A model generated the notes under the pieces. It was not told the origin of the DNA, ran no database searches, and saw nothing but the letters and a program-made list of their open reading frames with translations. Both the position numbers and the translations under genes were made by a program. From Schmidtea nova (Eukaryota), in NCBI GenBank assembly GCA_044892505.1, contig CM097883.1:448570001-448634000 (forward strand): DNA of 64,000 bases, given 5' to 3'. Positions 424-52,000 of the stretch are shown piece by piece (the stretch's first letter is position 1; every line of letters starts with the position of its first letter).

Positions 424-439
424 AATTAAGTTTAAATTT

Positions 440-700
440 GTTGTGGTGTATGGATGGGTTACATTAAAACATTCTAGGGACGCCTCTATCCATACCCATA
501 CATAAAATGCATACGTTACACACAAGCACCCTCGACTATTTCCCTGGATAATCGAGTTGGAAATGTGCAAGGTTTTTGAACAATGATGGGCAGATGAGCT
601 CTATTTCTAAAACTACTCCCCATTTATGTTCGGGGGTTCATCGTTGCCGATAGAAGGACTTACGCTTTCATTTCACTTTACTTCATTTGGAACCATTATT
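440..700 (+). mobile_element. Structured terminal motif of an unclassified element family, copy A
   Basis: Hairpin GTATGGAT(448-455)/ATCCATAC(488-495). Hairpin CTCGACTAT(531-539)/ATAATCGAG(548-556) with loop TTCCCTGG. Then TTGGAAATGT, CAGATGAGC, GGGGTTC and GATAGAAGG (649-657). Homologous to 5400-5740, 39500-39640, 48850-49070, 31230-31420 and 2784-2914. Confidence 0.65.
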
Positions 701-972
701 TTTCATTTTAACCCTACGGCCCCTTACAATATCAACTGGTAAAATATATCGTTACCTATATATTTTATTTTAAACTCCTAATGTTAATCATATGCAATTT
801 TTATTAATTATTTTATATCATGATATGGAAATAAATTATACTTTATAACTCAGTTTGCATTAAATAATTATTCTACTTTATTTTACAAAAAGAAAATTAA
901 TACGACAAAAAAAATTAAAAATATATTTTTACAAAATAATTAAAAAGAATTAGTTAAATTATATTCGACAAT

Positions 973-1464
973 TCACTCAAAAAATTTTAGAAAGTCATCA
1001 TCCAGCGCTATGAAATCCGTCGACGGATCTATTTCGGGTATCCCAGACATACCCTTAACTTGATTAATTAGTTGTTGCGAGTACTGTTTCTTCAATCGCC
1101 TTTGTCGGGAACCCATCTTGTTTTTCTTCTTCTTTTTATTTTCTATCGCCGACGAGATTTTTACGATCGGTTCTGATGTTGCCATGACCTCAGGGATTTG
1201 AGATAACCTTTCGGTATCATTTTCGATGGAACATCCTGATTTTTTCTCAGGCGACCAGTGTTCGTAGGTGACTGGTCGGATTAGACCTTTTAACTCTGTT
1301 TTGATGAATGATGTCGTAACCGAACGTAAGCATTTTCTTAGCTCTATTTTTGTCGCCTCCAGTTCAATGCGATATTTTTCGCCTGCTCTTTGGGCTCGTT
1401 GATTTTTCGTAATTTGTTCCTTCATTTGTTCTGGGCTAAACCAGCTTTTGCGGAGACGAGACAT
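973..1464 (-). CDS. Orphan 163-aa coiled-coil/basic protein carried by the unclassified element family
   Basis: Intact ORF. Aligns with the disrupted ORF at 38931-39352 (RKSWFSPEQMK vs RRTWFSPTEMK; ELEATKIELRKCLRSV vs ELSGVKLELN*CL*SV; IRPVTYEHWSP vs IRSSTFERWIP; KKNKMGSRQRR vs KRNRLGAKRRR). AATAAA follows the stop. Confidence 0.7.
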   Translation of the reverse strand: MSRLRKSWFSPEQMKEQITKNQRAQRAGEKYRIELEATKIELRKCLRSVTTSFIKTELKGLIRPVTYEHWSPEKKSGCSIENDTERLSQIPEVMATSEPIVKISSAIENKKKKKNKMGSRQRRLKKQYSQQLINQVKGMSGIPEIDPSTDFIALDDDFLKFFE

Positions 1465-2200
1465 TGTAGATTTTCTCTTTTGTTAGTCCAATTTCTTTCT
1501 CTAGACTGCGAATGATTCGCCAAGTCTTTTCCAATTCGGTTTGTGGGTTTTTTTGATTTGATGACATGGTTCTGAAATCTATTGTTATTATTCCTGGTTT
1601 ACTTTAAAGTTCGCATTTAATTATTGGTGAATGAATGTCTTTAGGAATCTTTATAAATTACTTTTATTTGATAATATATTTTATAACATTGACAGATCCC
1701 ATGCCATTGTTGGGATGATGATTTCCTTCTAGTTTTATCTAGCTATTATATTGAATTTTGGAGATGAAGAAGATGAATAGACATACAATAATTTTTAAAC
1801 ACTGTCGCTATGTACAGCAATCAGATTAATTCATTAAGTTTATTTATACCTGTGCTATCTGCAGCATTCAGGATGATTTAAGTTCAAAAGAAATGATTCG
1901 TGGATATTTGACTCGATCTTCAAAACCGGTCGCAATTTCGTTTTTAAATCAACAATTTTCGATTTTTGAAAAACTTTATTAGAATTATTTTAGAATGAAT
2001 TGAAAGACCTTGATTGATTTGTTTAACTGTTTCAATGTTTTAATGATTAATTGGCGGGTTTTGCTTTTAAATAAATGCTGAGTGTGAATTATAAGTTAAT
2101 TTAAAAAAGCAATTTTGAGATTGGGTTTTTGTCACAGTTATTGTTCGGTTTTATCTGTGCATTTGGGATGAAAATTATTTTGTAATTGATGAATTAAAAA

Positions 2201-2776
2201 ATGTCATTGGGCTCGAGTGTTTTTGATCGTTATGACTATTGTTCACCCGAAGGCAGATTATTTCAGGTCGAATATGCGATTGCGTTAGATGGATTACTTT
2301 CTGTTGGTATTCGAGGTAATGATTGTGACGTAGTTGCTACACAAAGAAAAGTCCCAGATAAAATGATTGAAGAGTTCAGCTACAAGATTATTTAATATAA
2401 CTGAAAGTACCGGTTGCGTTAGGACAGGTATCATTCCTGATTGCAGATCATAACTATGCCGTGCACAAATGAAAGCTACACGATTTAAATGCAAAAATGG
2501 ATACGATGCATTGCCGATATAAATCAATTGTACACTCAATCAGCTGAAATGAGGCCATTAGGCTGTTAAATGATCACATTATCATATGATAAGGAGATGA
2601 ATAAGCCACTGTTATTCAAAATCGATCCAAGTGGATTTGTAGCTGGTCATCGAGCTGTTGCGGTCGGTGGAAAGCAGTTGGAAGATAAAAGCTATTTGGA
2701 AAAGAAGCTTCGTAAAAATACAGAATTTTCAATTGATGAGGAAATCAATCGCTGCTGGACGCGGCGAACCAAGTAA
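2201..2776 (+). pseudogene. PSMA6: Proteasome subunit alpha type-6 processed pseudogene, 3'-truncated
   Basis: [37 protein letters not shown] and KIDPSGF..G.RA.AVG.KQ motifs. No introns. Frameshifts near 2390 and 2515, in-frame stops near 2452 and 2567, and internal deletions. Confidence 0.9.
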
Positions 2777-2783
2777 ATAAGAA

Positions 2784-2918: not shown

Positions 2919-4713
2919 TTACAATAGGATGTCCACAGTACATTTTATATAGATTTCATTCTTACGCATCAGATTTGGATTGTCCTCTAATTCTAATAGG
3001 CTTAAAAATTGTCGAAAGCCCTTTACACTATTTCTATTTGTCGGTCGAATAAGTGATTCAGTATTTGGATTATTTGCACATTTCACAATCTTACTGACAT
3101 GCGCCAGCCCAGTGCGCTGATTGATCAATGCAAATGTGACGGAATGCCTGAATGGCCATTCCAATATTCCATCCCACGGGCCCTTCATCAAACAAAATCC
3201 AATAGATAAATGCGTGCCCTCGTCATCACCACATCCATTAGGATGCATACCTAAACACATTTTATAACCATTTCTATGTGTGAAAAATGATTCGCTATAA
3301 ATAATTGTGTTGATCCATATTTCTGCATCTGCCATTTTATCACTGAATTTGTTGAGCTTCCAAATAAATTCTCCATAATTCAGTTGATTTTGATTGGCTG
3401 CCATTTCCAATAATTTGTTGTCAACATTTTGCATTGATTTATCGATTTTATTTGACATTTCCGTCTGATCAATTATATGTTTGTTTTTTATCTGATCGAT
3501 TTTTATAATTAATTCTTTCTGAAATTTTTATTTTATTTATTTATTAATCAGAAATTTATTTTACTTCTTTATTTTCTCTCAGATGATTCGCATTGTAAAA
3601 TTTGTTTTCTGTTTGCTGACAATTGGTAGTGCATTGGGCAATTTGCTGCTGGAAATTGTTCTCACGTGCTTGAATGGCCCGCTGAAATGTTGCCGCATCA
3701 AATAATCAATTATTTCATCAAAATTTCACCTGGTTGTCTTCGACATTCAATTTCAATCTATCCAATTCATCGCCCACATTTCTATTCACATTCCTCAATG
3801 CCGGCATGTCCTCGTTCAATAATGCGATTTCTCGAGCGTGATCGTCACATTTCCTCTGCAAATCTCCAATTTCAATCTTGATAATAATCACAATTGATCA
3901 ATAATTATGAATATTGCAATTTATTAACAAACTCGATTCCTTTGCTCATCTGAAATCAATTTATCCATATTTTCTCTTATCGCAACATTTTCAACATTCA
4001 AACAAATTATATCCGCATCCAACTGGCCAATTTTTACGGTTTTCTCATCAGATTGGCACTGCAATTCAGCAATTTCTTCCTGAACTCTCATTATTTATCC
4101 ACATCAAATCAAATATTGCATTTACTCGTCTTCTCTCTCCATCCAATTTCAATTCATTGATCTCAGTTTGCAATAAATTATTATTGGCTTTCATAATGCC
4201 CATCTCATTATTGAAATTGCCAATGAAGTCCATCAATAGTATTGTGTGCGTCAATATTTCAGATTGCAAATGATCCGCAACTTTATCCTGAGATATATTG
4301 CATGCGTTACATCCGATATTCGTATACGGACATGCAACTGATCGGTATTTGCACATCCGTGAATGATATTCTATTTTTCTGATTTCATCAACAAATACAC
4401 AATTCTTATTCAGGCATTTCACTTTTAATTTTAATATTTTGATATTAATTGCGTGATCCACTGCAATATTTTCATCCATATTCAGCATTTCCAGTTGACA
4501 TTCATCTGTGTTACCAGGACAAATTCTATTCTCACCGTCCAGAAAGCCTGAAATGCAAGTGAAACAAAACCTGCAACTGCATGGAGCACAGCGAGCATTG
4601 ATCAATAATTTTTTACACAGCAAACATAACATGTCGTGATCGATTTCTGTTACAAATTCATAATTAATATTTCTCATAATTTGCCAATCATTTTCTAATT
4701 TTAAACCAGCCAT
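2919..4713 (-). pseudogene. TRAF-family gene (RING, TRAF zinc finger, coiled coil, MATH), disrupted in the coiled-coil region
   Basis: ORF 4066-4713 has a RING (CLLC..CAPCSCRFCFTC..CP) and TRAF zinc fingers. ORF 2919-3458 is a MATH domain (FIWK, SESFFTHRNGYKMCL, HLSIGFCLMKGPWDGILEWPF). The 3565-4065 linker has several frameshifts and stops. One 46-nt GT-AG intron candidate at 3519-3564. Confidence 0.8.
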
Positions 4714-5399: not shown

Positions 5400-5740
5400 A
5401 TTGGGTGGTAAGGGTGTCGTTATAAAAATTGTTAATGAATTCTAGAGATGAGGAAAACCCATACCACAACATAAATATCAATCTACCTCACTCGTGTGCC
5501 CATAGTTATTCCCTAAGTAACTATGTTGGTATTGTAAACGGTGGCGAGAATCTAATGAGCAGGTGAGCTCCGTTACCGAAACTACTCCCTATATTCTCTC
5601 TTTCGGGTCCTTTTCTGACGATAGAAGGACTTACGCATCTACTTGCTTTACAGTCCAATCGCATAATTACATTTAATTCTCTACTATCCTATGCTATCAC
5701 CTATCTACCTTAATTCCTCCAAAAATAATTCACCAAAATG
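5400..5740 (+). mobile_element. Structured terminal motif of the unclassified element family, copy B
   Basis: Hairpin GTGGTAAGGGT(5405-5415)/ACCCATACCAC(5457-5467). Perfect stem CATAGTTA(5501-5508)/TAACTATG(5518-5525) with loop TTCCCTAAG. Then TTGGTATTGT, CAGGTGAGC, GGGTCC and GATAGAAGG (5620-5628). Confidence 0.7.
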
Positions 5741-6180
5741 ATGAATGAATATGTATAATCACCTTTCTTTTATCCGAATTTGGCTCAAAGTCACCGATTC
5801 AGCGTAATCTCGAAAGAGTCACGTACGAAAGGCTTTTCACCAGGGGGTCAGCAACCACTGAGGAGTACATTATGTATTTTACCCCGGATATTATGAGGGT
5901 TTATTCATAAATAAATGTAAATAAACGTAACAAAATAAAATATTTATTACCCCAATTCACAATAATACACATTACAAATGAAAATATTTTTACCATCACA
6001 TAAAAAGAAACAAAAACATACTAACGCACTCAACAGACTGGCGAAATACAAAATTGTACTCACTGCAAATTAATGCAAAGTAAGTTTAGATTGTGATTTT
6101 TCAGCGTCTATTTATACTAAATCTACTAACGCTCACATATGTTGATATTTAAATAATGATATTTAACAATTTAAACATAC

Positions 6181-6602
6181 TTATTAGTTTTAATAAGTGA
6201 GTATTTATTTATTTTTTGTAAATTTAATTTTATAATTCGATTTATTTATTTTCTAAAATATTTGTTTTTAATTCCGTTAATTGATGTATATATCCATTGT
6301 TTTCGTACACTAATTGATTAATTAAAACAATCAAATTTAATTCTATTATATTTTTTATTCCTATCTCTGTTATTTTTACGATATTTGAATGGGGATTTTT
6401 TCTATAATTTTTAATAAATTATTTTCTTTATCCTAATACAAATTTTATTCTTTAATCATGCTTTTCGTATTCACTATACAAGCAATGATCTTCCACATTC
6501 AATTCTTGTACGCTCCTTCGTATGTTAATCCGACCTGCACTCAAATTGTGTGCTCTCATTTTAGATACCTCTTTTCTATTGTTTCACCCTATTTAAATCG
6601 AC
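6181..6602 (-). repeat. Diverged repeat, inverted copy of 1-423
   Basis: See 1-423. Confidence 0.85.
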
Positions 6603-29378: not shown

Positions 29379-30479
29379 TTATTTCAGTTTTTTCATCGAA
29401 GACCCTAAATATCTTGACTTGTGGTCTGCGAAAAGAATCTTGAAACTACCTTCTAAGTCAATTTCTTCATCATTTGATTTTGCGTTAAACACAATTGAAC
29501 GACTCAGACAAAAAACAGCTCCGGCGTTATCGAATTCGCCACAATAATTCGGAGCGGAAAATATCGTTATAAAAGACCGATTGGCGAAAAATTCATAACC
29601 ATCTTCCACGACCTGGTGAGCTCTTATTATGAGATCTAAGCCAAACTTTTTCAAGAATTTATCAACAACAGTCGGATTGAAAACATAGGATATCCCTCTT
29701 TCATTGGGAGCGAATCCGTCTTGAGAGAAAAATTCATTGTGAAGCTCAGAACTGAACAAGCCATTTGGAAGATCTAATGGATCAGACCACAAAAGATCAC
29801 AAACTAATCCCTCTTCTGGAATGTCCGTTGGACGAACAATTGAGCGGATTTTATGCTTCAAAGTCTCTAAATTAACGACTTCCGATTTCAGCATTTCCGG
29901 CGACAGACCTCCATGACAACAGAAAATTTGGTTTTCTAAAATTGCTGCAATCGGCAGACAATTAAAAACGTCTAGAAATGATTTCCAAAGCTTTATACTG
30001 AATCGTCTTTTGCATTCATCATAAAATCCGTACACTCTACTCACGGCTTGACTCTCGTGATTTCCTCGAAGAAGATAAAACGAATTCGGATACTTGATCT
30101 TGTAGGCTAGTAGAATTGTAATTGTCTCAATTCCTTGGCGTCCTCGATCGACATAGTCTCCCAGGAACAGATACCGAGTATTACTTGGATCACCGCATAG
30201 CTGTAAAAGATGTATTAGGTCGGGAAATTGCCCGTGGATGTCGCCACAGATTTTCATTGGTCCTTCAGCTTCAATTAGCATCGGTTGGTTTTGAATAACG
30301 ACTTTCGACTGCTGTATGATGGACTGGACATCGGTTTCTTTTAAGGATACATTTAGAATTTTATTCTTTCCGGCATTTGTTAACATTTCAATGCATTCAT
30401 CCAGATCCAATAGGGGGCTGTCTGGTATTTGCTTACGGAGTGAAGGTGACGACTGTTTGGTTTCAGTTTTAACTGACAT
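29379..30479 (-). CDS. Divergent intronless PP1-family Ser/Thr phosphatase catalytic subunit (366 aa)
   Basis: Intact [38 protein letters not shown] and [13 protein letters not shown] motifs. Three loop insertions relative to canonical PP1. Confidence 0.93.
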
Positions 30480-32346: not shown

Positions 32347-35300
32347 TTAGAAAATTGTACGGAATTGTCTCTCAATCTGTCCATTTGCTGAATGATGATA
32401 TGGACTTGAATAATTAATTTCAATATTGTGGAATTCTTCAAAATCTTTCATTAGCTTAGATTCAAATGATTTGCCTCTGTCACAGTTTATTATCCTTGGT
32501 GCACCAAACTTCATTATCCACTCTTCTTTCAGTAATCTTACCACTGTTTTTTCATCTTGCGATTTTACCGCATGTAAAGAAATAAACTTTCTATGATGAT
32601 CTATAATCCCAAGAATATATCTTTCTCCTCTCATTGCAAGTTGTAATGGACCACAAAAATCTACATAGATTGTTTCAAATAATTTCGAATCACTTTTGCA
32701 AATTATTTCTTCTTTTGTTTTAGTTGTATCAACCTTTCTTTTCTGACAGTTTTCACAGGCTTGTACAACATTACGAATAGATTGCTCCAAATCTTTCAAA
32801 TGAAAATTGTTTGATACGTACATTTTTACTTTTTTAGCACCCGCGTGACAGAGCTTTTTATGATATTCTATGATGAATTTTGACTTGTTTTCCTCTGGAA
32901 TCCAAATTTTATTATTATTGGTCATAATCACTCCGTTGACATATTTAAAAAATGTTTTATCTGGCATCATACTAATATTTTCTTTTATATTTTCAATTTC
33001 TCTTGAGTTCTTTTGCCATTTATTTTCAATATTTTCAGTCATCAGTGTCAACAATCTTGTTTTTAATTTACTCATTTTAGGATTTTCATGAATCATTTGA
33101 CATTGAACACATGTTTCACATTCTTTTCTAGATAGAGCGTCGGCATTATTGTGGTTATCACCTTTTCTGTATTGAATCTCCATGTCCAGACCACTAAGAT
33201 GGTTAATCCAAGTTTGAAATTGTGGAGTAATAGCTTTCTTTGTCTTCATCATAAAAGTAATGGCTTTGTGATCCGTTCTCAAAATAAACTTTTTACCATA
33301 TATATTGTGCTTTAAATGACCAGTAAAATAAAATATAGATAGTAATTCCTTTCTTGTTATACAATAGCCTAATTCGTGTTCATTCATAGCTCGGGATCCA
33401 TATGCGATTACTCTTTCTTTATTTTCATCTTTTTGAGATAGAACAGCACCGATGCGGTCAAAACTTGCATCTGTATCCAAAATGAATGGTTTAGAAAAAT
33501 CTGGAAACTTCAAAACAGGTGTAGACGTAAATTTCAGTTTAAAATTTTGAAATGAAGTTTCACACTCATCAGTCCACATAAGCTTCTTTTGTTTACTTCC
33601 ACATAACGCTTCTAATACTTTGGAATCTTTGGTGTAATTTTCTATAAATCTGCGATAGTAATTTGCCAGGCCTAAAATTCCTCTCAAGCTTTTTACGCAT
33701 TTAGGTCTTTCAAAATTTTTAATAGTTTCAATCTTGCTTTCATCCGTACGTATTCCATTTTCACTAATGATAATGCCCAAAAATTTTACTTCTTTCCTTT
33801 TGAATTGACATTTTGCTGGACTTATTTTAAGATTTGCTAATTTAATCTTTTGAAAAACCTTTTCAATGGTGCTATAATGTTCATTCAATGTCTTTGAAAA
33901 TATAAGGATATCATCCAGATATACAATTGTTCCATTCCAATTTAATTCTCCAAGAACCAAATTCATAAGTCTTTGAAATGTTGCTGGTGCGGCGGCTATT
34001 CCAAATGGCATTCTGTTAAAGTAATATTGCTTGCTTTTTGTCGAGAATGCTGTTTTTAATTTTGAAGCCTTGTCGAGTTCTACTTGATAATAAGCATTCC
34101 CTAAATCAATTGTCGAGAAAAATTTTGCTCCGTCAAGAATATCTAATAATTCATCTGTATTTGAAATGGGAAAAATCGGTCTTTCTATTACATTATTTAA
34201 AGCACGATAATCCAAACATATTCTTATATCACTGCTGTTTTTCTTTTAACACATACTAATGGAGAATTCCAGGGAGATGTACATTCTGATATAATGCCAT
34301 ATTTCAACATTTCTTGAATATTTTCTTCAATTTTCTCTATTAAATGAATCGGTTGTCGCCTTGGGTTTATTACAATCGGGCTACCTTTAATAAGTATTTC
34401 ATGCTTTAATAGTTCGGTTTTCCCAACATCCCATTTATGTTTCATAAAAATGCCGTCAAATGTGGAAATTAGATTATTTATTATCTTATCTTCACTCATG
34501 TGTTTATTAAATGAATTTTCCATAATTGCATTTATTTCGTCTTCACATTTATTAATTTGTAATTGCATTCCAAATCTTTCGAGAAAATCTATGCCTCCTA
34601 TTAACTTTGGGTTTATATCTTTGGCTACAACGAATTCTACTTTTTTAATTTCAGACATTTTATCAATTTTTACATTTAATAAAGTTTTACCGCAAATTTC
34701 AATCGGGCTTTCATTCGCACATCTTAATTTTAAATTACTTGTAGTCATACTCAAGTTTCCAAGTTTTTTAAAAATATTATAATCAATCACACTTATTTTA
34801 GCTCCAGTATCTAATAGACATACTAATTTTACATTATTAATCATCACGGTAACACTGGGCCTTCCTTGCATTTTATCGTATACTATTATATCATTCCGTT
34901 TATCACGATTAAAAACATTTATTTCATTAGAAGTTAGAGTGGGGTCTTTAAAAAGTTCATCCATACAAAATTTATCAATGTATATATTAGTATAATTTCT
35001 ATAATCAAAAACACAAGCACAACAGTTATCATTCAAACTATCACAATCATTCAAAGTCATACAATCCTTACTCACATCATTAATTACCTTTAATTTATTG
35101 CTCCGATCACCTCCTTGTGTGGTGGAGCATTCCCGTTTGGGTACTCAAAACCAGCCTCTGGATCCTCATCACCGAATGCGGCCACTGATTTATGGAATTT
35201 TCGTCGTCTGTCTGGAAATAACTCATGGCACTGATGTTTGAAATGTCCTGATCTTTTACAATGGGCACATTGAATATTGGGGCATTCAGATCTTTTATGG

Positions 35301-36153
35301 CCTTCTTCGTGGCACGCCCAACATCGTAAAATTTGATTTGTTCGGGCATGATCTCGTGAATGAAATTCCCTGGTATTAAAAGGCTTACTTCTATTCACAG
35401 GTTTCCATCCATTTGAAATAGTATATCGATGTTCTCTTGTAAAATCACCTTTAAATCTTGGATTAGGTTGAGGTTCTCTTGAATATTCATTTTTGAAACT
35501 GGGATTAGCTTCTCGTTCTCTAATTGATTTGTTTTCATAGCCATATCTTGGTAAACTCTTCTTAACAGCATCAGCATATCGTTGGGTTTTATTCATTGGA
35601 GCTACATCAGCATGAAATACATTAATTTCTTTTGAAACTTGATCGTGTTTCTTTAATCTTTCTTTCATTTCATCAAATGATTTTAAATCTTGGATTTTCA
35701 GATCTTTTTTAACTTCTTTATCTTCAAGTGAATTGAATAGTAAAAATTTCTTTAGTTCTTCTTCATCAAGTTTATGCTTCAAAATATTTTTTGCAAGTTT
35801 CTCAATTTTGAGCAGAATTCTTCGGCTGCATCATTTCCTTGACGATAGTTTAGTGCTTCGTTGAGATCATCGATAAGACTTTTGTTCTTAGCAAAAGCGT
35901 TTCTTAATCTTTTTGTATAATTCAGAGTTTCATTTGTCAACTTATATTTCTTCGTTGCATTGATTGATAGAAAAGCTTTGACGAATTTGCTTCTGTACTC
36001 ATCGACAGTATTTGTCATCTCGAAGAATCGTTCCGTTTCTAAGATGAAATCTTCCACGTCTGAATCCATGTCATATGTTTCTGGTGGTTTGATAAAATTT
36101 GCAATCGTGGTCGCCATATTAGCCACAGCACTACGGGTATTAATTGAATCCAT
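32347..36153 (-). mobile_element. Ty3/gypsy LTR retrotransposon (gag with 2 CCHC knuckles; PR-RT-RNaseH-integrase), integrase truncated
   Basis: CWACHEEGHKRSEC and CAHCKRSGHFKHQC; LLDTGAKISVI; YLDDILIFS; ILDTDAS; H..LCH..C.NC zinc finger; YVDFCGP, DRG, GQIER. Single-A deletions near 35800 and 34245. The integrase stops right after GQIERQFRTI. The 5' LTR was not found and may lie in or beyond the N-gap. Confidence 0.95.
35099..35141 (-). promoter_or_regulatory. Programmed -1 ribosomal frameshift signal between gag and pol
   Basis: In-frame C CCA AAC (35135-35141), 5-nt spacer, then stem TGCTCC...GGAGCA (35099-35129). The -1 (pol) frame opens immediately: TGA GTA CCC AAA CGG. Confidence 0.8.
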
Positions 36154-38930: not shown

Positions 38931-39352
38931 ATGACTACTTATATAGTAGAGGTAGACGAGTAACGGCGGACGTGGTTCAGTCCTACCGAAATGAAGGATG
39001 TATTGAAGGGTAAGGACAGAATGCAACGGTCTCTCGATGAGCATGCCAAGGAACTATCAGGGGTCAAGTTAGAGCTGAACTGATGCTTGTAATCCGTAGC
39101 AAACTACTTTATCGAGAGAACCAGATCCGCTCAAGTACTTTTGAGCGCTGGATCCCACGAACGAGTCTAGACATGAACACGCAGACTACGGAGACTCTAC
39201 CTACCAGGGGAAGTATGAACGCCGACGTAGGTATTACATCCGATCCTCAATCAGTGCCTATAAAGCCGAAAAAGAGGAATCGATTGGGCGCGAAAAGACG
39301 CCGTGAGCTTAGAGCATTTGCAAAACGCATGGGGATTGAATTCAACCTTTAA
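38931..39352 (+). pseudogene. Disrupted homolog of the 973-1464 orphan ORF
   Basis: WFSP at 38973-38984, in-frame stops at 38961, 39080 and 39089, and a frameshift near 39110 into the frame ending at 39352. See the alignment under 973-1464. Confidence 0.75.
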
Positions 39353-39499
39353 AGCGGCTTAACAGAAAAACAACTGATCAATGTTATTAATACTGATGTG
39401 TTTTTAAGCTAAATAAACGTATTGTATTGTAGTTACGTTAATTTTTATTTTTTATGCATGAATGAACCTTGGAAATATGAATGAAGGATGATTGATAAA

Positions 39500-39640
39500 T
39501 AAAACGGACCTTATGAAACCCACAAAGGACCTTCTATCAGTCGTGGTGAACCCGTAGCATTAATAGGGGGAAATAACCGCCTATGTTGCTCACCTGCCCT
39601 ATTTATCTACACTGCTAAGCACATTACCAACAATCCGAAC
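39500..39640 (-). mobile_element. Structured terminal motif of the unclassified element family, copy C
   Basis: Reverse complement reads GTTGGTAATG(39622-39631), GGTGAGC(39588-39594), stem AGCA..ATAGG/CCTAT..TGCT, GGGTTC and GATAGAAGG(39530-39538). Confidence 0.7.
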
Positions 39641-39709
39641 ACCCAGCAAAATCCCATGTTTAACATCGACAAACAAAACCAACACTCATATAAAATCAGT
39701 GATATTTCA

Positions 39710-40651: not shown

Positions 40652-43600
40652 ATGGTAAATTTTTTTTTCGGTTTTCATTTATTAATTAATAATATATTAT
40701 TTATTTTTAGAGTCGATTTTATCATGCATTAAGCAGTGATTCTGATTCCAGTGATTCTGAGGAGGAAGTTGTAGTGGAAAGGCCAATTGCTTTGTAAGTG
40801 AAATTTTTTTGAGTCATTTTTAATGTTTTCAATTCGTTTTCAATATAGTGACGATTCAAGTGAAAGCGAAGATGAGAGACGAATCGTTAAATCTGCAAGA
40901 GAAAAAAAGTTATTATTTTTATATTTCATTGAATAAAATTCAAAATCAAATGCCAATTGATAGATATGAAGACTTGCAAGGAATTGTTAAAAACTTGAAA
41001 AATCACAAAAATATTCAAGATATCACTAAAGTTTTGGAGGATTTTGAAGAATTGACGAAAAGCTACGAGAAAGCTCACAAAACAATGGAAACAGATGGAG
41101 TTTTGAAGTTCTACATTCGAGTAATTGCTGAATTGGAAGATTTTACAAACAGTTCTTGGGCAAACAAAAAAAATCTCAGTAAAAACAATTCGAAAAGTCT
41201 AGCGGCCCTACGACAGAAAATCAAAAAATACAACAAAGATTTCGAAATGCAAATTGCTGATTTTCGTGAAAACAGTGATTTGTATCCATTGGAATTGGTG
41301 CCGGAAATTATTGAAGGTTCGTATAAAGCAATTATCCGGGGATTGAGTGGGGATAATTTCTGGGTTATTGTGATTGTTTAGATAGGAAAAAATTCACTTT
41401 TTAATTCTGTTTTTAAAATTTTTCTTCAAATAATAATAAAATCAAACACAATAAATTTAATATCAAAATGATCACATTATTCCATTGGCCAAATAAAAGA
41501 ATGTTCATAGCCGACGTTTCACCTGAGGTTCACAAATACACTCAGAAAATTTTCTGAATTTTACAACTCCGACAGAGGGAATGCTTCTTAAAGTATAATA
41601 TAACTTTCTATTATTAACTAAAAGAACACATGAACTGAATAGAAGACTCTCACAAAATTGATTAGTATCTGATCTGGCACAATAGTGAAACAAGAATATT
41701 CCTTTCGCTTACTATTTAATTTTTAATAAAATCCCTACATTAAATGTCTGCAAATAAGTAGATAAATAATTTAATTTCCTAAAATTAGATTTAATTTTTG
41801 AGGATTGACAAAGCAGCCTGTTAAGTTTGGGAAATTTATTTCCACAATGACATGATTGAAATTATTAATTAGTTAATTTATAAATTTTAATAAATGGTGA
41901 TCCATATCGATTGAAAATTATTACATTCGTCCTTATCTTTTCATTTGCCACCTATACATACTTTTTTTTAAAAATATTGATTTATCATTTGTCAGTTTTT
42001 TATTACAATAATTTGTGCTAGCCCAGCATAATGCTATATATTTCAGAAGAGAAAGCTATCGAAAAAAAACTGGAAGACCCGAAAAAAGTTTCCATTATGA
42101 AAGATAAATCCGATTCCGAAGATGAAATGTGGGATCAGGACAGTTATAGCGAGTCGTCTTCGTCGGAAGATGAAGAAGAAATTGAATTGTACAAAAATGA
42201 TCCAGCAGCTAGATTTTTAAAGTCGCACACGAGTAAACAAAAGGATAAAAAGAAGAAAGAAAAGCGTGGAAAAGATCAAAAAGAGTACAGGATAAAAGAT
42301 AGAGATGATGAAAACGGCTGGACAACTGTTGATATGTACGGAAGACCAGAGGTAAAACTATTTGCCGATGATGAAGAAATAACGAGAGAATCTATTCTCA
42401 ATAAAATGAGATCTGAACTCGAAGGTAGAACGAGCAAAAAGGATCAGAGAAAATCTCAAGTTGATATTTTACAGCAATTAATCGATCTTGTCGTCAATAG
42501 GGGATTTGGAATAGGATTGCAGGTGAAAATTATGGTTTCACTCGTTTCTCTATTGTTGCAATACAAATGCAGCGCTTCAAATCCTTGCATGAGCCTTGAC
42601 AATTGGAAAAGGTAGGTATATATTTTTATTAATGTGATTTTGCACTGCAAAGTAATGTTTTTTGTTATTTCTACTTTGTGGTATTTTAGCTTATCAAATT
42701 TATGTAGTAATCAATAAGGTTTGGTTTTATATATATTTAAATAAATCAATGCAAATTATATAAAAATAATGTGAACCAATAATTATCATATTTTTTTGGT
42801 AACCATTGATTTTTTCAATTTCAAATATTCAATTTTTATCGTGTAAATTATTGGATTTTGCACATGGGGGATGGGGTATCTGCAAATCCGAGGTTATGTC
42901 AACATCTATTAACTAAAAATATGGTTGTTCGAATGACTTCAAGCAATAAATGAATCTACTGCAAAATAATACTTATGTAATAAAACACTTTATTTTCAAA
43001 AAAAATAGTTAAAAGTGCCGTAATAAAACTGATAACTCTTATTTAGTAATAACGTTTTAAATATAAATAAAAATTTTACTTTATCAGATATTGCTCAAAA
43101 GTAGCTTTTATAAATTATATTTTCTAAATTCAATTGATTGGGATTGGAAATAAGAAGCTCTTTCGTACGTACGCATAAAATAAATGGTCGAAAAATCTGC
43201 TATATGCAACAGGGAGGTATGAAATTAAGACCGTACACGCAATATATGGACAGCCTTTTGATCTAATTCATGTACCAATAAAATGCAATTAAGCTTATAA
43301 ATGTGGCAACTTATCATAGTAAAAAATCTTCAACCACTCATCAGTTAAAAATTCCACAATCTCGTGAATGGATTTTGGAAATTTTCAAGTGTATATAAAG
43401 AAATTTAACTTGTCCCTGGTTGTAAATTATAACCAAATCAGTATAAACAGCACGAAACCATTCTTTCGTCGTGTATAGATTGTTTTTTCATTTACAAATG
43501 TTTGATAGGCTGTACTGAAAACGTATAATTATTTGTAACAAAACGTGAATAGAATCGATTTATCAATAAATGACAATTTGATCATTATATAAATTGATTG

Positions 43601-45049
43601 TAGAATTCTCGAGATCACATTCGACATTGTGGAGATATTGAACAAGAATACCAACGACATTTCCATGAGAATTAGTGATATTGATGAAAATGAGAAACTT
43701 GATGTAATTTCATTTAATCATTGAATTGCGAATTCACTAATTGATTTCAGGTACCACCTTATACTGTCGGTGGATGCATTATCGGATTCCTCGAACATTT
43801 AGAGGATGAGTACACAAAAATTCTAACGTGTCATGATTTCTCATCAGACAAAGAGGTTGAATATCGTGAAAAGTTGCGATTTGAAACTAAAATTATGTCG
43901 CTGTGTAATTTAGTTAGTGAATATTTGAATAAAAAGAATTACGGCGATGACGAGAAATGTCGAGTGTACATGCGACAATTAGAGCACATTTATTATAGAT
44001 TCGATACCACTGTTGGAATTAAGGAGGAAATACCAAGTTATAAAGAAATGAGAAAATTGTCAGGATTTATAACTTCTCGAGATGAAACGGATCGATTGAG
44101 AACTAGAGCGATTTTGTGCCATATTTACTATCTGGCACTTCACGATTATTGGTTTGAGGCCAGAGATATGATGGCCATGTCGGGGCTGACAAATCATATT
44201 GATCGTGCTGATGCATCAACTCAGATATTGTTTAATCGGGTTACTGTGCAATTGGGATTGTGTGCATTCCGACGCGGATGCATCAAAGAAGCTCACCAAG
44301 CTCTAGCTGAATTACAAGGATCAGGAAGAGTTAAAGAAATTCTAGCCCAAGGAACTCGATTAAATCGAAATGAGGCTACCCCAGAAGAATTATATCGTGA
44401 AAAAATGTTTCTGCAGCCGTATCACAAGCACATAAATGTCGATGTAATTGAATGTGCATATCTAGTATCAGCAATGCTAACCGACGTCAATCATTGTCAC
44501 ATGCAACAAGCTGATGGCCGTCGTGTCATGATCAGCAGAAATTTCCATTACGTATTGAAAAATAGCGACAGAAACACTCTTAACGGTCGACCAGATAATT
44601 TAAAAGAACATGTTGTAGCTGCTTCGAAAGCTCTTTTTAACGGTGACTGGAAAACTGCAGCTAATCATATATTTGACGATAAAATGAAAAAGTCAGTTTG
44701 GGCACTTTTTAGAAATTTCGAAGAGTTGAAAATAATAATTATCGAGAAAATAAAGCTGGAGTCAATGAAAGCTTTCTTATTAAGCAAGGCCAATGTATTC
44801 AATTCATTGAGCTTGAAATACTTGGTTGATATATATGAATTAAGTCAGCATTCAGTTCATCAGTTAATAAGTAAAATGATTCTTGATGGAAAATTAAAAG
44901 CTTCCCTCGATGAACCATCGAATTGTTTAATAATGCATAGAACCAGAACTTCTGGCCTTCAAATTGCGGCGCTGAAACTCGCGGACAAAATTTCTCAACT
45001 GGCCGAATTAAATGAAAAATTGCAAGATGCTTCTAAACCGAAATACTAA
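40652..45049 (+). CDS. EIF3C: Eukaryotic translation initiation factor 3 subunit C (about 820 aa, 7 exons)
   Basis: Exons 40652-40654, 40711-40793, 40849-40908, 40964-41316, 42047-42611, 43604-43703, 43751-45049 (2463 nt, all GT-AG, phases consistent). MSRF..SDSD N-terminus, LRTRAILCHIYYLALHDYWFEARD, QILFNRVTVQLGLCAFR and a PCI domain. Confidence 0.95.
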
Positions 45050-47380: not shown

Positions 47381-48151
47381 TCAACCAGCGCGACACTCGG
47401 GACAAAACCATTCACCATTCGGTACATCGATCACATTGACACATTTGTTGTGAAACCATTCAATTTTACAGCTGCTGTTATCGCATGCGATCATTTTACC
47501 GAATGCGCCTTTCTTGCAGTAACAATAACAGTTATTATTATTATTATTGTTCCGTTTCCCAGTGTTACTCTCATTGCTATTGCTGTGATCAATGAAACCC
47601 CGCTGAGGCTGTCGGTGATGATTTGCTGTAGCGGTGCAATGGAGTAATTTATTATGGTTATATTTGCATTTCGATTGAGTTATTATTCGCAGACTTCGGC
47701 GGCTTTTATCACGCTTTGTTAGCTGTTTTTTGTGATGGTTTGTTGGAGAATTTATCACTTTTTCTTGTGACTTTTCAACTACAATTAATTGTTCATTTGA
47801 TGAGCTAATGTTGCTTTCAATTGATTCTTCTTTGCTTCTTGTTTCAGTTGATTGATTCCCGATGTCTAATATCTTTTTATTGTTGCTGTTGCTGTGGAGA
47901 TATTCAGACATTCTATCACAGTTGATAGTTTTTCTATCAAGCATTTGGTGGATTTCCAATAGGATGTTTTCATATCGATAAATAGTTTCATCTGAATCAA
48001 ATATTATAATGTTTTCTAGTTCGTTGAGGAGTTGATTTATTTTATAATCTAGTTTTGAGTGTGATAATAGCAGGGAAAGCAATAAATCTTTGAAATCTTT
48101 TTCCAAATTGCAGTTTAATGAGATTGTTTTGGGATTTGCAAAATTAGACAT
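47381..48151 (-). CDS. ING-family PHD-finger protein (256 aa)
   Basis: C-terminal CYCKKGAFGKMIACDNSSCKIEWFHNKCV..PNGEWFCPEC and a helical N-terminus. A 56-nt GT-AG intron (48152-48207) abuts the ATG. Confidence 0.9.
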   Translation of the reverse strand: MSNFANPKTISLNCNLEKDFKDLLLSLLLSHSKLDYKINQLLNELENIIIFDSDETIYRYENILLEIHQMLDRKTINCDRMSEYLHSNSNNKKILDIGNQSTETRSKEESIESNISSSNEQLIVVEKSQEKVINSPTNHHKKQLTKRDKSRRSLRIITQSKCKYNHNKLLHCTATANHHRQPQRGFIDHSNSNESNTGKRNNNNNNNCYCYCKKGAFGKMIACDNSSCKIEWFHNKCVNVIDVPNGEWFCPECRAG

Positions 48152-49070: not shown

Positions 49071-52000
49071 GCCCGTTTTTGTCCCTTTTAAGATTTCAAT
49101 CTACATTTCAAAATAAGTAATCTACATCAATATAAATTTATTATTACATAAAAAAACCATTTTCCAACATCAAAACATCAACAATTCACGCAAGGATCCA
49201 TTTAAATTACACATAACCTAATAATAAACAGAATAAAATCAATAAAATCATTCGTTCAAAAAGTACTAAAGTCCTTCGGGTTTTTCAAGGCGCTTTTCTT
49301 ACTCTACTGTCACCAAATCCTTGACTTTTCCAATCAAAATATAAAGCGTAATCAAATCAATTATTTCAATCAATCGCTATACAATATATTATCCAAAGAT
49401 GCAAACATTTTCGCACCTTTATTTAATTCTCAAGCTCATTCTCAAACATATTATCACAACTTAATTCAGGATCAAATATTCCTTCAAAATTACCCATGAT
49501 TGGGGTATACGATTTCTGTTATTTTGGCCTAAAACTGCGATTATTTTCGTAGGTCTTCAAACTTTTGTGTTGTTAATATTTAAAATTTAAGTAATCTTTA
49601 TTTATATCCTAACCCTATTGTCTATCTTGCTTATTTAAAAATCTTTATCATTTTATTAAAATTTAATATTTTAACTTTCAAAAATTTGCCGAGGCCCTAG
49701 CAACAGGTAACGATACAATTTCTTTTCCCAAATTTCAATTAAATACACTATAAATTTATTTGAATTTTTATGCCTTTCATTTAAATTTCTGAATTTTAGA
49801 TCAAATTTTAGATTAGGGAAATCAAATCTCAAGGGTTCCGGTGTCACTCTTATCGTTAAAAAAGCTGGCAAAAGAAAACTATATGGACGACTTTCAAAAA
49901 ATTCTAGTATCCTATTGGCTCAATTTTATTATAGTAAGTATTATAATATAAAGAAATTTATTGATTTTGTTTTATTTTTAGCAACAGAGGTTTCCGTTTC
50001 AAACTGAAAATAGAGGTAAAATTTCATTTTCCTTTTGTAAATTTAAATTACATGATTATTCCTTATAGCCTCAAGAATTATCGGAGAAATCTATGGAACT
50101 GGCCTCTCAAGTCAGATGTTCAACAGAATAGAAATCATCAATATTGTCAATCAGTTCACAAAATCCAATCTCTCTCAGCATTTTTTATTGCGTTTCCATC
50201 TCAAAAAAGAACAAATGGCTGCAGTAAATTCTGACAAATCCTTTATGCCAACGACAATTGAAAGAATGTCGTTATCATCAGAAAAACCAAATCTATCCTT
50301 CCGTGCAAGACTCTTATATGGATTTTGAAATATATGGCCTAAACTATGGATATTAATCTTATTGTATTTTGTTTTTGGAAATTTTATACAAAAAATATTT
50401 TTCCATATGAATTTTTCTTACTTAAATGATAATAGGGATTTTTGTAAAAATATTTGAACGAAGACCAAACACAGCAGTTTTGTCGTCCGTTTCCCTCATG
50501 TAATGATAAACCCCATCGAAATCCTACTTTCCATGTTCAGCATAGTTGGGATAGACGCTATAAATTACAGGTTTTCTTTGTGACGATTATTCTTACACTT
50601 TTGCAAATTATCCAGAGAATAGTTATTAGTCGATATAAATAAATCAAAATCGACAATCAGTACATTTCGGAATTAAGAGTATTTACGAAAGGAACTTTTC
50701 ATGGACAGTGTTCACCATAAGGTTAGTTATGAGTATGAGATGTTAACAAATGGGTTTTACTGGAGTTTTTTAAGCAGTAATAATTCTTTCTATAGGCTGG
50801 TTAGGCTGATGTTTAGAATGTTATTGGTAAATGATTGGCTTGCTTGGGTTTTTAATTAAATAATTTTTTTGAATACATTTCCTAGATGCACCGTGCTGCA
50901 TGGATGATGTGAGTAAATGGAGGGATGGAGTATGAAGATTGTGTTGTTAAGTGAGACAAACGAAGTTATGTGAAATTATTGTGGAATGAATTTGTTGTGT
51001 ATGGCGTTTTCTATGGATTTTGATTGTTGGATGAGCTGATTCTGCATGTATTTATGGGTGTATTATGCTGTTGGTGAGTGTAGTAATGAGTGAGATGGAG
51101 TGATTGCAAGTTTGTGTGTATGTATACCGTTATAGATTTGTTATGGAGTTTCTATTGTTGGGATTTTATGTGATTGTATGTTGGATGTAATATGATTGGG
51201 TGAGTGTGTGTGTGAATTCTCTGGATGTATGATGCCGATGGATGCTATTGAATGAAATGATGTAGTATGTGTGTTGGTAAATGAATAGATTGTCTGGTGT
51301 AGTGTTAAGTATTTATAGTGCTAATGAATTATATGGATGCAATAAATTGTAAAGAGGGTTTTATTGATAGTTTTGCGTTTTTATGTGTGGAATTTATGAA
51401 AAGGGGGGTTGTATATAAAATAATTTTCCTAATTTTCGGAAATAATAAATTAAATTTTATCATTTACCAAATTTTATAAGTAACTAAATTTGGAATTTTA
51501 TGAAGTTATATATTTATAAATTGATTTTTACGTTTTTTTTTAAATATTAATTTGACTTAATATTTATAAATTTTCCTAAAATAATTAAATTCAGAATTTT
51601 ATGAATTCATACAATTATAAAATTTTTCGATTTATTATTTTCCTAGGTAAATTAGGGACATTTAAATTTTTATATAATTCACAAATTAATTAAAAATGCA
51701 TATATAATAATTAATATACATTATAAATTAAATTTTTCTAAATAAATTTTAAAAACATTAAATAAAAAAAAATATACACAATTATACAAAATTTATATTA
51801 AAATTACTGATTTGTAATTTCTTCACAGGGATTCGAATTTACTTGATTGAACTTTTTACGAGGTTTATAAAATCATAGAAGTATCAGATTTAGGATTTTC
51901 CTTCAATTATCATTCAAAATCAACTCTTTGAATCATAGTGTTTTCGATAACAGATGTGGTGAATTTTAGTTTCGTTCAAACGTGATTTTTTCGAGAAAGG

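Follow-up and report, generated by a model that had tools for sequence, protein, structure and literature searches.

A conserved gene within the long terminal repeats of Burro-like giant gypsy retroelements in the planarian Schmidtea nova

Giant gypsy-like elements named Burro or GYPSM1 have been described from Schmidtea and Dugesia, with a published total length of >30 kb (PMC6431247), and elements of the GAG-ENV-POL type occur in Platyhelminthes (PMC13524379). Genes placed inside a long terminal repeat (LTR) are known from complex retroviruses, in which MMTV sag, rem exon 2 and HIV-1 nef are positioned in U3, and retroviral R regions measure 15–250 nt (PMC12789967). Extra ORFs are also carried by plant LTR retrotransposons, including gene23 of Grande and those of Retand and RIRE2 (PMC7264820). 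The available passages on Burro/GYPSM1 describe no gene inside the LTR (PMC6431247), and those of PMC13524379 mention neither LTR-internal or accessory genes nor splicing. In the literature that we searched, no gypsy LTR-internal gene downstream of the promoter was found, and the figures or supplements of the original Burro paper may already mark LTR ORFs. That original description is reportedly the one by Grohme et al. in 2018. Here we analyzed a stretch of S. nova DNA of 64,000 nucleotides (the window), in which a reading frame lies within the LTR of Burro-like giant gypsy retroelements. The elements themselves are thus already known; a conserved LTR gene downstream of the promoter may be the new part, unless the original paper shows it.

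The reading frame and its LTR remnant

A first-pass annotation of the window had reported a 163-aa ORF at 973–1464, and an ATG-to-stop frame of 163 codons is indeed present there on the minus strand. The same annotation regarded the frame as intact, which has to be corrected. Relatives run to ~196–203 aa from an upstream ATG, the full-length product being ~200 aa, and ~40 residues of the full protein precede the Met of the 163-aa ORF. The real ATG of the window copy is at 1567, with a frameshift near codon 33. As the frame from this ATG stops after 43 codons, the 163-aa ORF represents the later part of a gene broken by the frameshift. The N-terminal ~33 codons (1465–1567, minus strand), recognized by translation and by an HMM match covering profile positions 2–38, are out of frame with the rest. 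The downstream 163 codons (973–1464, minus strand), which open at an internal Met and are delimited by the ORF, tblastn and a structural model, encode the second coiled-coil helix, an IRP.T..W motif, a linker, a basic helix and an acidic tail. A splice acceptor of the TTTCAG type is predicted from the sequence and the family YAG pattern at 1572–1578 (minus strand), 4 nt 5' of the true ATG, and an AATAAA at 877–882 (minus strand), ~90 nt past the stop, is a candidate poly(A) signal. Within the predicted intron, a Pumilio-element-like TGTACATA is found at 1809–1816 (minus strand) in a predicted small hairpin.

The gene is held in a 5'-truncated remnant of a ~2.9-kb LTR at 439–1893 (minus strand), which was delimited by blastn against four whole solo LTRs (81–83% over ~1470 nt) and which the first-pass annotation had not recognized. 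Its 3' terminus (…CCACAACA) ends at 439, and the promoter-bearing 5' half is gone. The remnant is also 80.5% identical over 1336 nt to another LTR that adjoins Burro-like internal sequence, and this match links the subfamily of the window copy directly to the parent element; the 5' end of this matching LTR comes after TRAF and coiled-coil ORFs, and a ~17-kb nested insertion splits it. Changes private to the window copy comprise 7 replacements and 3 silent substitutions, a ratio of about 0.6 per site from small numbers. Having neither promoter nor frame, the window copy is likely a dead fragment of a live family.

A second, broken copy proposed near 38931–39352 was borne out by tblastn, which matched 38964–39367 (plus strand) with 41% identity over 51 aa and 26% over 90 aa in another frame (combined E 9e-12), the motifs listed for it being kept. 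The end of this copy has to be corrected, since the reading continues beyond an internal stop at ~39352 to ~39412. According to tblastn and family profiles, 38931–39412 (plus strand) is a decayed gene copy from a distant LTR subfamily, with in-frame stops and one frameshift. An AATAAA at 39412–39417 (plus strand) directly follows, and 39413–39684 (plus strand) is the 3' portion of a second LTR remnant with the terminus …ACCAACA, 65% identical over 401 nt to a comparison LTR that is linked to a primer site (L136). A weaker trace suggested at 49420–49500 gave no tblastn match and no family-profile match (best E 37), and a remnant of ORF-A, the second LTR gene discussed below, was looked for 5' of the second copy within the 64-kb stretch and found no support. 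The family is larger than a pair, with many genomic copies and a distant subfamily.

The 64-kb stretch is AT-rich animal DNA and contains TRAF, PP1 and eIF3c genes as well as gypsy fragments. A RING/TRAF gene at 2919–4713 (minus strand) adjoins the LTR remnant, and LTR remnants in a cluster at C1:395.5 Mb likewise have TRAF and RING ORFs beside them; given this flanking, element cargo may be the origin of some host TRAF copies. The LTR remnant and the TRAF gene lie between two inverted copies of a dispersed repeat of ~430 bp (11–438 and 6168–6592, 85% identical), which is also present at other loci, and an 80-nt piece of the LTR 3' region is located at 5555–5636, within the interval 5555–5725. 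An unrelated ordinary gypsy element lies in pieces at 32347–36153 (minus strand), with gag CCHC, protease-like, RT, RNase H and integrase frames. Intron-less genes for a PP1-type phosphatase (29379–30479, minus strand), eIF3c (40872–45049, plus strand) and a PHD-finger, ING-like protein (47381–48151, minus strand) are also found, together with what we take, by eye, to be a decayed, intron-less proteasome alpha-subunit copy at 2200–2780 (plus strand).

The gene family and its parent elements

A search of the genome (1.25 Gb) with the window copy returned 9013 candidates, and the 150 that were scored are 61–85% identical and mostly lie in open frames of 200–214 aa; with a distant subfamily, 150 matches were scored among 9429 candidates. 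Stops are present in 14 of the 30 copies closest to the window ORF. All gene copies examined are in dispersed LTRs, and the homologue searches described below were blank; neither is as expected for an ordinary host gene family with a fixed locus, a hit to which the first-pass annotation had named as the opposing outcome. Closely spaced copies at C1:86.6, 332.5 and 395.5 Mb, considered as LTR pairs, are segmental duplications, and the pairing of copies at C1:78.5, 99.0, 31.66 and 297.1 Mb as LTRs of one element was unsupported.

Comparison of twenty 10-kb gene-bearing loci revealed that their common part is only a ~3-kb unit, which starts with TGTTGG and ends with CAACA, or close variants of these. 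Both termini were located in 8 of the 20 copies, giving lengths of 2828–3087 bp, and these eight are flanked by target duplications that are perfect 4-bp repeats in six cases and match at 3 of 4 positions in two. In some copies a primer site, TGGGGGCTC… (158 pattern matches, some of them overlapping; control 0), presumably of the tRNA-Pro type, stands past the 3' terminus, or an internal junction common to the elements precedes the 5' terminus (391 pattern matches, control 0). With the primer site after the 3' terminus and the junction before the 5' terminus, the gene is in sense orientation. In a check for a polypurine tract, the junction upstream of the 3' LTR proved strongly conserved but not a plain purine run. 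A DNA transposon with a 4-bp duplication, such as Ginger or Sola, is ruled out by the primer site and the internal region. One 17-nt LTR 5' terminus has 321 exact matches in the genome, and the gene was found in 23 of 26 distinct primer-site-linked LTRs drawn from the first 30 loci listed.

Whole elements are, with their LTRs, about 25 and 29.5 kb long. In subfamily C, paired LTRs of 3327 bp are 99.7% identical and enclose a polyprotein whose frame is interrupted once by a stop codon in the copy that was read. It has two CCHC knuckles and a fusion glycoprotein domain (PF24664), together with protease, RT, RNase H and integrase (pol in this order) and ankyrin repeats. A RING ORF is positioned 3' of the primer site, and three ORFs, one of them encoding TRAF, stand 5' of the 3' LTR. 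In subfamily B, the paired LTRs show 100% identity over 2789 bp and are flanked by a GGTG duplication; the layout is as in C, except that the two elements read are without RT-RNase H-integrase. Pfam recognized the fusion glycoprotein (E 2.5e-71 and 2.1e-72), which lies between gag and protease and is in frame with them. Young elements at C1:47.17–47.20 Mb (L185–L187) and C1:4.62–4.64 Mb (L181–L184) have one long open polyprotein frame from protease to ankyrin and are without RT, RNase H and integrase; pairs of primer site and junction at spacings of 19.5–19.7 kb, at least five in number, suggest that this type is a successful helper-dependent subfamily. In addition, ORF translations revealed Polinton/Maverick-like elements nested in or beside several elements (L116–L120, L057–L060).

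Selection, LTR signals and the predicted protein

From 114 profile hits, 78 distinct intact frames were compared by pairwise Nei-Gojobori counting estimates, and the resulting ratios are biased low because intact frames were chosen. The dN/dS was 0.11–0.18 in 599 pairs with dS of 0.1–1.2, 0.40 in 12 pairs at dS 0.05–0.1 and 0.21–0.35 above dS 1.2, and 1829 pairs were saturated. By region (513 pairs), it was 0.15 in the first helix, 0.07 in the WFSP-second helix segment, 0.09 around IRP..W, 0.10 in the basic region and 0.09 in the tail, and thus 0.07–0.15 outside the linker, where it reached 0.31. Changes private to single copies gave pN/pS of 0.14 (43 copies) and 0.10 (31 copies). The past purifying selection suggested in the first-pass annotation is therefore upheld, and the ratio near 1 that it named as the opposing outcome is far from the values of 0.11–0.18 found among copies. 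Between subfamilies B, C and D, protein identity is 28–32% for the LTR gene, 47–66% for TRAF and 73–82% for env/protease, and the LTR-gene protein diverges along with its LTR. Such fast divergence is not specific to the LTR gene, as another small accessory ORF is about equal (29–51%).

Promoter-like and splice-like motifs are conserved in the LTR. Among the 55 LTR starts that were oriented from 60 loci, a CCAAT motif, CTGATTGG, is positioned at ~315–375 in 49 and a TATA-like box ~27 nt past it in 49, and a donor-like AG|GTA follows at ~430–610 in 34. A YAG stands no more than 5 nt 5' of the ATG in 62 of the 63 copies that have a Met at the N-terminus (it is lacking in 15 of the 78) versus 429 of 3286 background ATGs (13%); it is kept across subfamilies despite differing surrounding DNA, and among 12 other accessory ORFs, 10 have the same motif ahead of a start Met. 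The gene lies ~1.2–2 kb 3' of the TATA-like box, AATAAA or variants come after its stop, and donor, acceptor and AATAAA are all within the same LTR. Being downstream of the predicted promoter, the gene would be placed in R or U5. Two-motif genome searches, with narrow patterns, returned no intron-less LTR copies, and a joint at the predicted intron was absent from four contig runs of one study, which are of unknown kind and unable to show expression.

Subfamilies differ in what surrounds these signals. Of 31 copies from subfamilies A, B and E, 28 have the motif TGTAHATA shortly before the acceptor, versus 2 of 31 copies from subfamily C. Three tandem hairpin-like repeats, CTTCTTCCAC…GTGGAAGGAG, were observed at L188:1690–1900, within the intron predicted for the subfamily-B LTR, and subfamily A has one related copy; Rfam gave no match for these repeats, and its single match on four LTR loci was an AT-repeat. 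Subfamilies C and D contain upstream a second LTR gene, ORF-A, of 158–211 aa (for example L219:4639–5271, minus strand, and L224:2339–2812, plus strand; C and D versions 22% identical, E 5e-5). It has an Arg-rich N-terminus and a predicted alpha/beta domain (pTM 0.61), and searches returned no homologue and no Pfam, Atlas or fold match. The A, B and E LTRs read are without ORF-A, and no subfamily appears to have both ORF-A and the Pumilio-like hairpins.

For the LTR protein itself, AlphaFold2, run on an alignment of 48 natural copies (mean pLDDT 76, pTM 0.34), predicted helices at residues 5–45, 50–100 and 103–115, a disordered linker at 116–147, a basic helix at 155–172 and a tail helix at 188–195, and this model backs the coiled coil and basic patch proposed earlier. 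Hydrophobic residues occupy 9/12 and 8/14 of the heptad a/d positions, and oligomerization via the coiled coil is predicted, as read from the heptads alone. Patch and tail were scored in 33 of the 48 copies (10 missed the pattern and 5 had short tails): the patch has a net charge of +9 to +11 in all 33, and an acidic tail is present in 32. The tail ends in an LKFF/AKYF-type hydrophobic motif in A, B and E, which may resemble acidic activation motifs. The acidity of the tail is less marked in subfamily C (net −3 to +1), and an acidic tail is not evident in L132/L140.

The orphan status claimed for the protein stands. A set of 5.8 billion sequences gave no homologue when searched with one protein, with an alignment or for longer proteins (the last being weak evidence), nor did a profile search of 1.84 billion sequences, and the best Atlas score, 0.88, was under its lead level. 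PDB sequences matched only as designed coiled coils at E 0.05 or worse, and Pfam searches with 48 members at E up to 0.5 reported no Rev/Rex/Rem family and no host-like domain among the 25 of 48 matched families listed. Fold searches returned generic coiled coils only (best Z 6.2, rmsd 3.5, 70–101 residues aligned), with nothing in Foldseek at E 0.001; the delta antigen and Oblin-type folds that had been put forward for comparison were not among the fold, Pfam or PDB hits listed. The protein is also not similar to the internal ORFs of the element (best E 0.066).

Proposed function and comparison with known systems

The predicted anatomy, a long coiled coil followed by a basic helix and an acidic-hydrophobic tail, best fits a nuclear self-regulator such as Tas or Tat. 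We tentatively propose, giving it somewhat less than an even chance, that the ~200-aa gene under purifying selection encodes a self-activator of this kind, produced from the shortest spliced LTR transcript. Its transcription, splicing, binding and activity are what we infer from the features above. Transcription would start ~400 nt into the LTR, and a short leader exon, ending at the donor at ~450–530, would be spliced to the acceptor just before the ATG. As the mRNA would end at the AATAAA-type signal past the stop, a single LTR can hold the complete gene. The protein would oligomerize through its ~100-residue kinked coiled coil and enter the nucleus, where the basic helix (net charge about +10) may bind DNA or RNA of the element and the acidic-hydrophobic tail may recruit host machinery, activating the element's own transcription in the manner of foamy-virus Tas or lentiviral Tat. 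With the gene placed in the LTR, the regulator and its target sequence would stay linked while LTR subfamilies diverge.

Alternatively, the protein may act like Rev, Rex or Rem, with an Arg-rich helix that binds structured RNA of the LTR intron and multimerizes, aiding export or stability of unspliced RNA. An element with at least five accessory ORFs, most of them with acceptor motifs, and with an unspliced polyprotein RNA needs splice or export control, and the RQRRWKKQ motif of the protein, in our view, resembles the arginine-rich motif of Rev. The TGTAHATA just upstream of the acceptor in 28/31 A/B/E copies is also consistent with RNA binding, but it is missing from 29 of 31 subfamily-C copies that retain the gene. 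The MMTV rem exon is likewise located in the LTR, according to the sections of PMC12789967 used here. Against this role, nuclear export-signal patterns in the tail are no more common than in shuffles (18/33 versus 22.0 expected, in a weak pattern test), and no Rev or Rex family is among the 25 of 48 matched Pfam families listed for the 48 members; we consider it rather unlikely.

A counter-defense protein, directed against host silencing by piRNA or chromatin or against another pathway in the way of the TRAF/RING/ankyrin cargo, would account for quick protein divergence between subfamilies combined with strong constraint inside them, and the available Burro passages place several host-modulating ORFs on the element (PMC6431247). 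However, no region has an excess of replacements (all dN/dS ≤0.31) and no host-like domain was recognized (among the 25 of 48 matched Pfam families listed), which makes this role distinctly unlikely.

A structural protein packaged in particles, whether nucleocapsid-like, as the first-pass annotation proposed, or an RNA chaperone, is improbable. A long coiled coil with a basic patch is the general layout of delta antigen, and the parent element, with its fusion glycoprotein, may form particles. Yet Gag already brings two CCHC knuckles, which makes a nucleocapsid role for the LTR protein unlikely; the protein itself has no CCHC motif, the family profile does not match the element's Gag at E 10, and no capsid or nucleocapsid fold was matched. 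The conserved acidic tail and the separate, predicted-spliced LTR gene better suit a regulator. Finally, a repressor or interference factor limiting copy number or re-entry is highly improbable. Solo LTRs are numerous (321 exact matches to one 17-nt 5' terminus), many have an open frame, and they could supply such a factor to the benefit of the host. However, the window copy has a frameshift and, among its private changes, 7 replacements to 3 silent ones, and this as well as stops in 14/30 of the closest copies is as expected for decay after insertion.

A conserved spliced gene 3' of the promoter inside a gypsy LTR would be a new layout, and solo LTRs would then be protein-coding units rather than bare promoters. 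The gene is also a concrete, RNAi-testable candidate for the expression control of giant envelope-bearing elements that shape planarian genomes. A bolder form, which we hold to be doubtful though worth stating, is that these LTR genes are self-contained, with promoter, leader exon, intron, ORF and poly(A) site in an R of ~2 kb. Such an R would be roughly ten times the longest retroviral R. The protein would represent a new class of coiled-coil transactivator that serves whole as well as RT-less elements in trans, and each of the solo LTRs that recombination has left in their thousands would be a portable cassette for expressing it. It would also be the first Tas/Tat-like regulator in a gypsy element.

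Compared with the available description of Burro/GYPSM1, the parent element is alike in its polyprotein, which has a CCHC Gag, a fusion glycoprotein in frame ahead of the protease, RT-RNase H-integrase and ankyrin repeats, and in its TRAF/MATH and RING cargo and thousands of copies (PMC6431247). It differs in that TRAF has an ORF of its own downstream of pol; Pfam reported no BIR, BCL2-like or Smc motifs in the elements read. A parent element of this kind, described from planarians, points to a likely planarian host. Similarly, the LTR gene is like MMTV sag/rem and HIV-1 nef in being an accessory gene in the LTR that is spliced (by prediction in our case), but the retroviral genes are placed in U3, upstream of the promoter, whereas the planarian gene would be in R or U5 (PMC12789967), and the proteins share no sequence similarity. 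Tas, Tat and Rev/Rex/Rem are small basic nuclear regulators made from spliced mRNA, according to the portions of PMC12789967 consulted, and the anatomy of the LTR protein would be analogous; it differs by its ~100-residue coiled coil and has no Pfam, PDB-sequence or fold match to them, which makes the likeness one of analogy only. The extra ORFs of plant elements, as far as the available text of PMC7264820 goes, are also conserved orphans with proposed accessory-like roles, the Grande gene23 product being nuclear, but they occupy the internal region, in many cases as antisense ORFs located between pol and the 3' LTR, whereas the planarian gene is in sense orientation and within the LTR itself.
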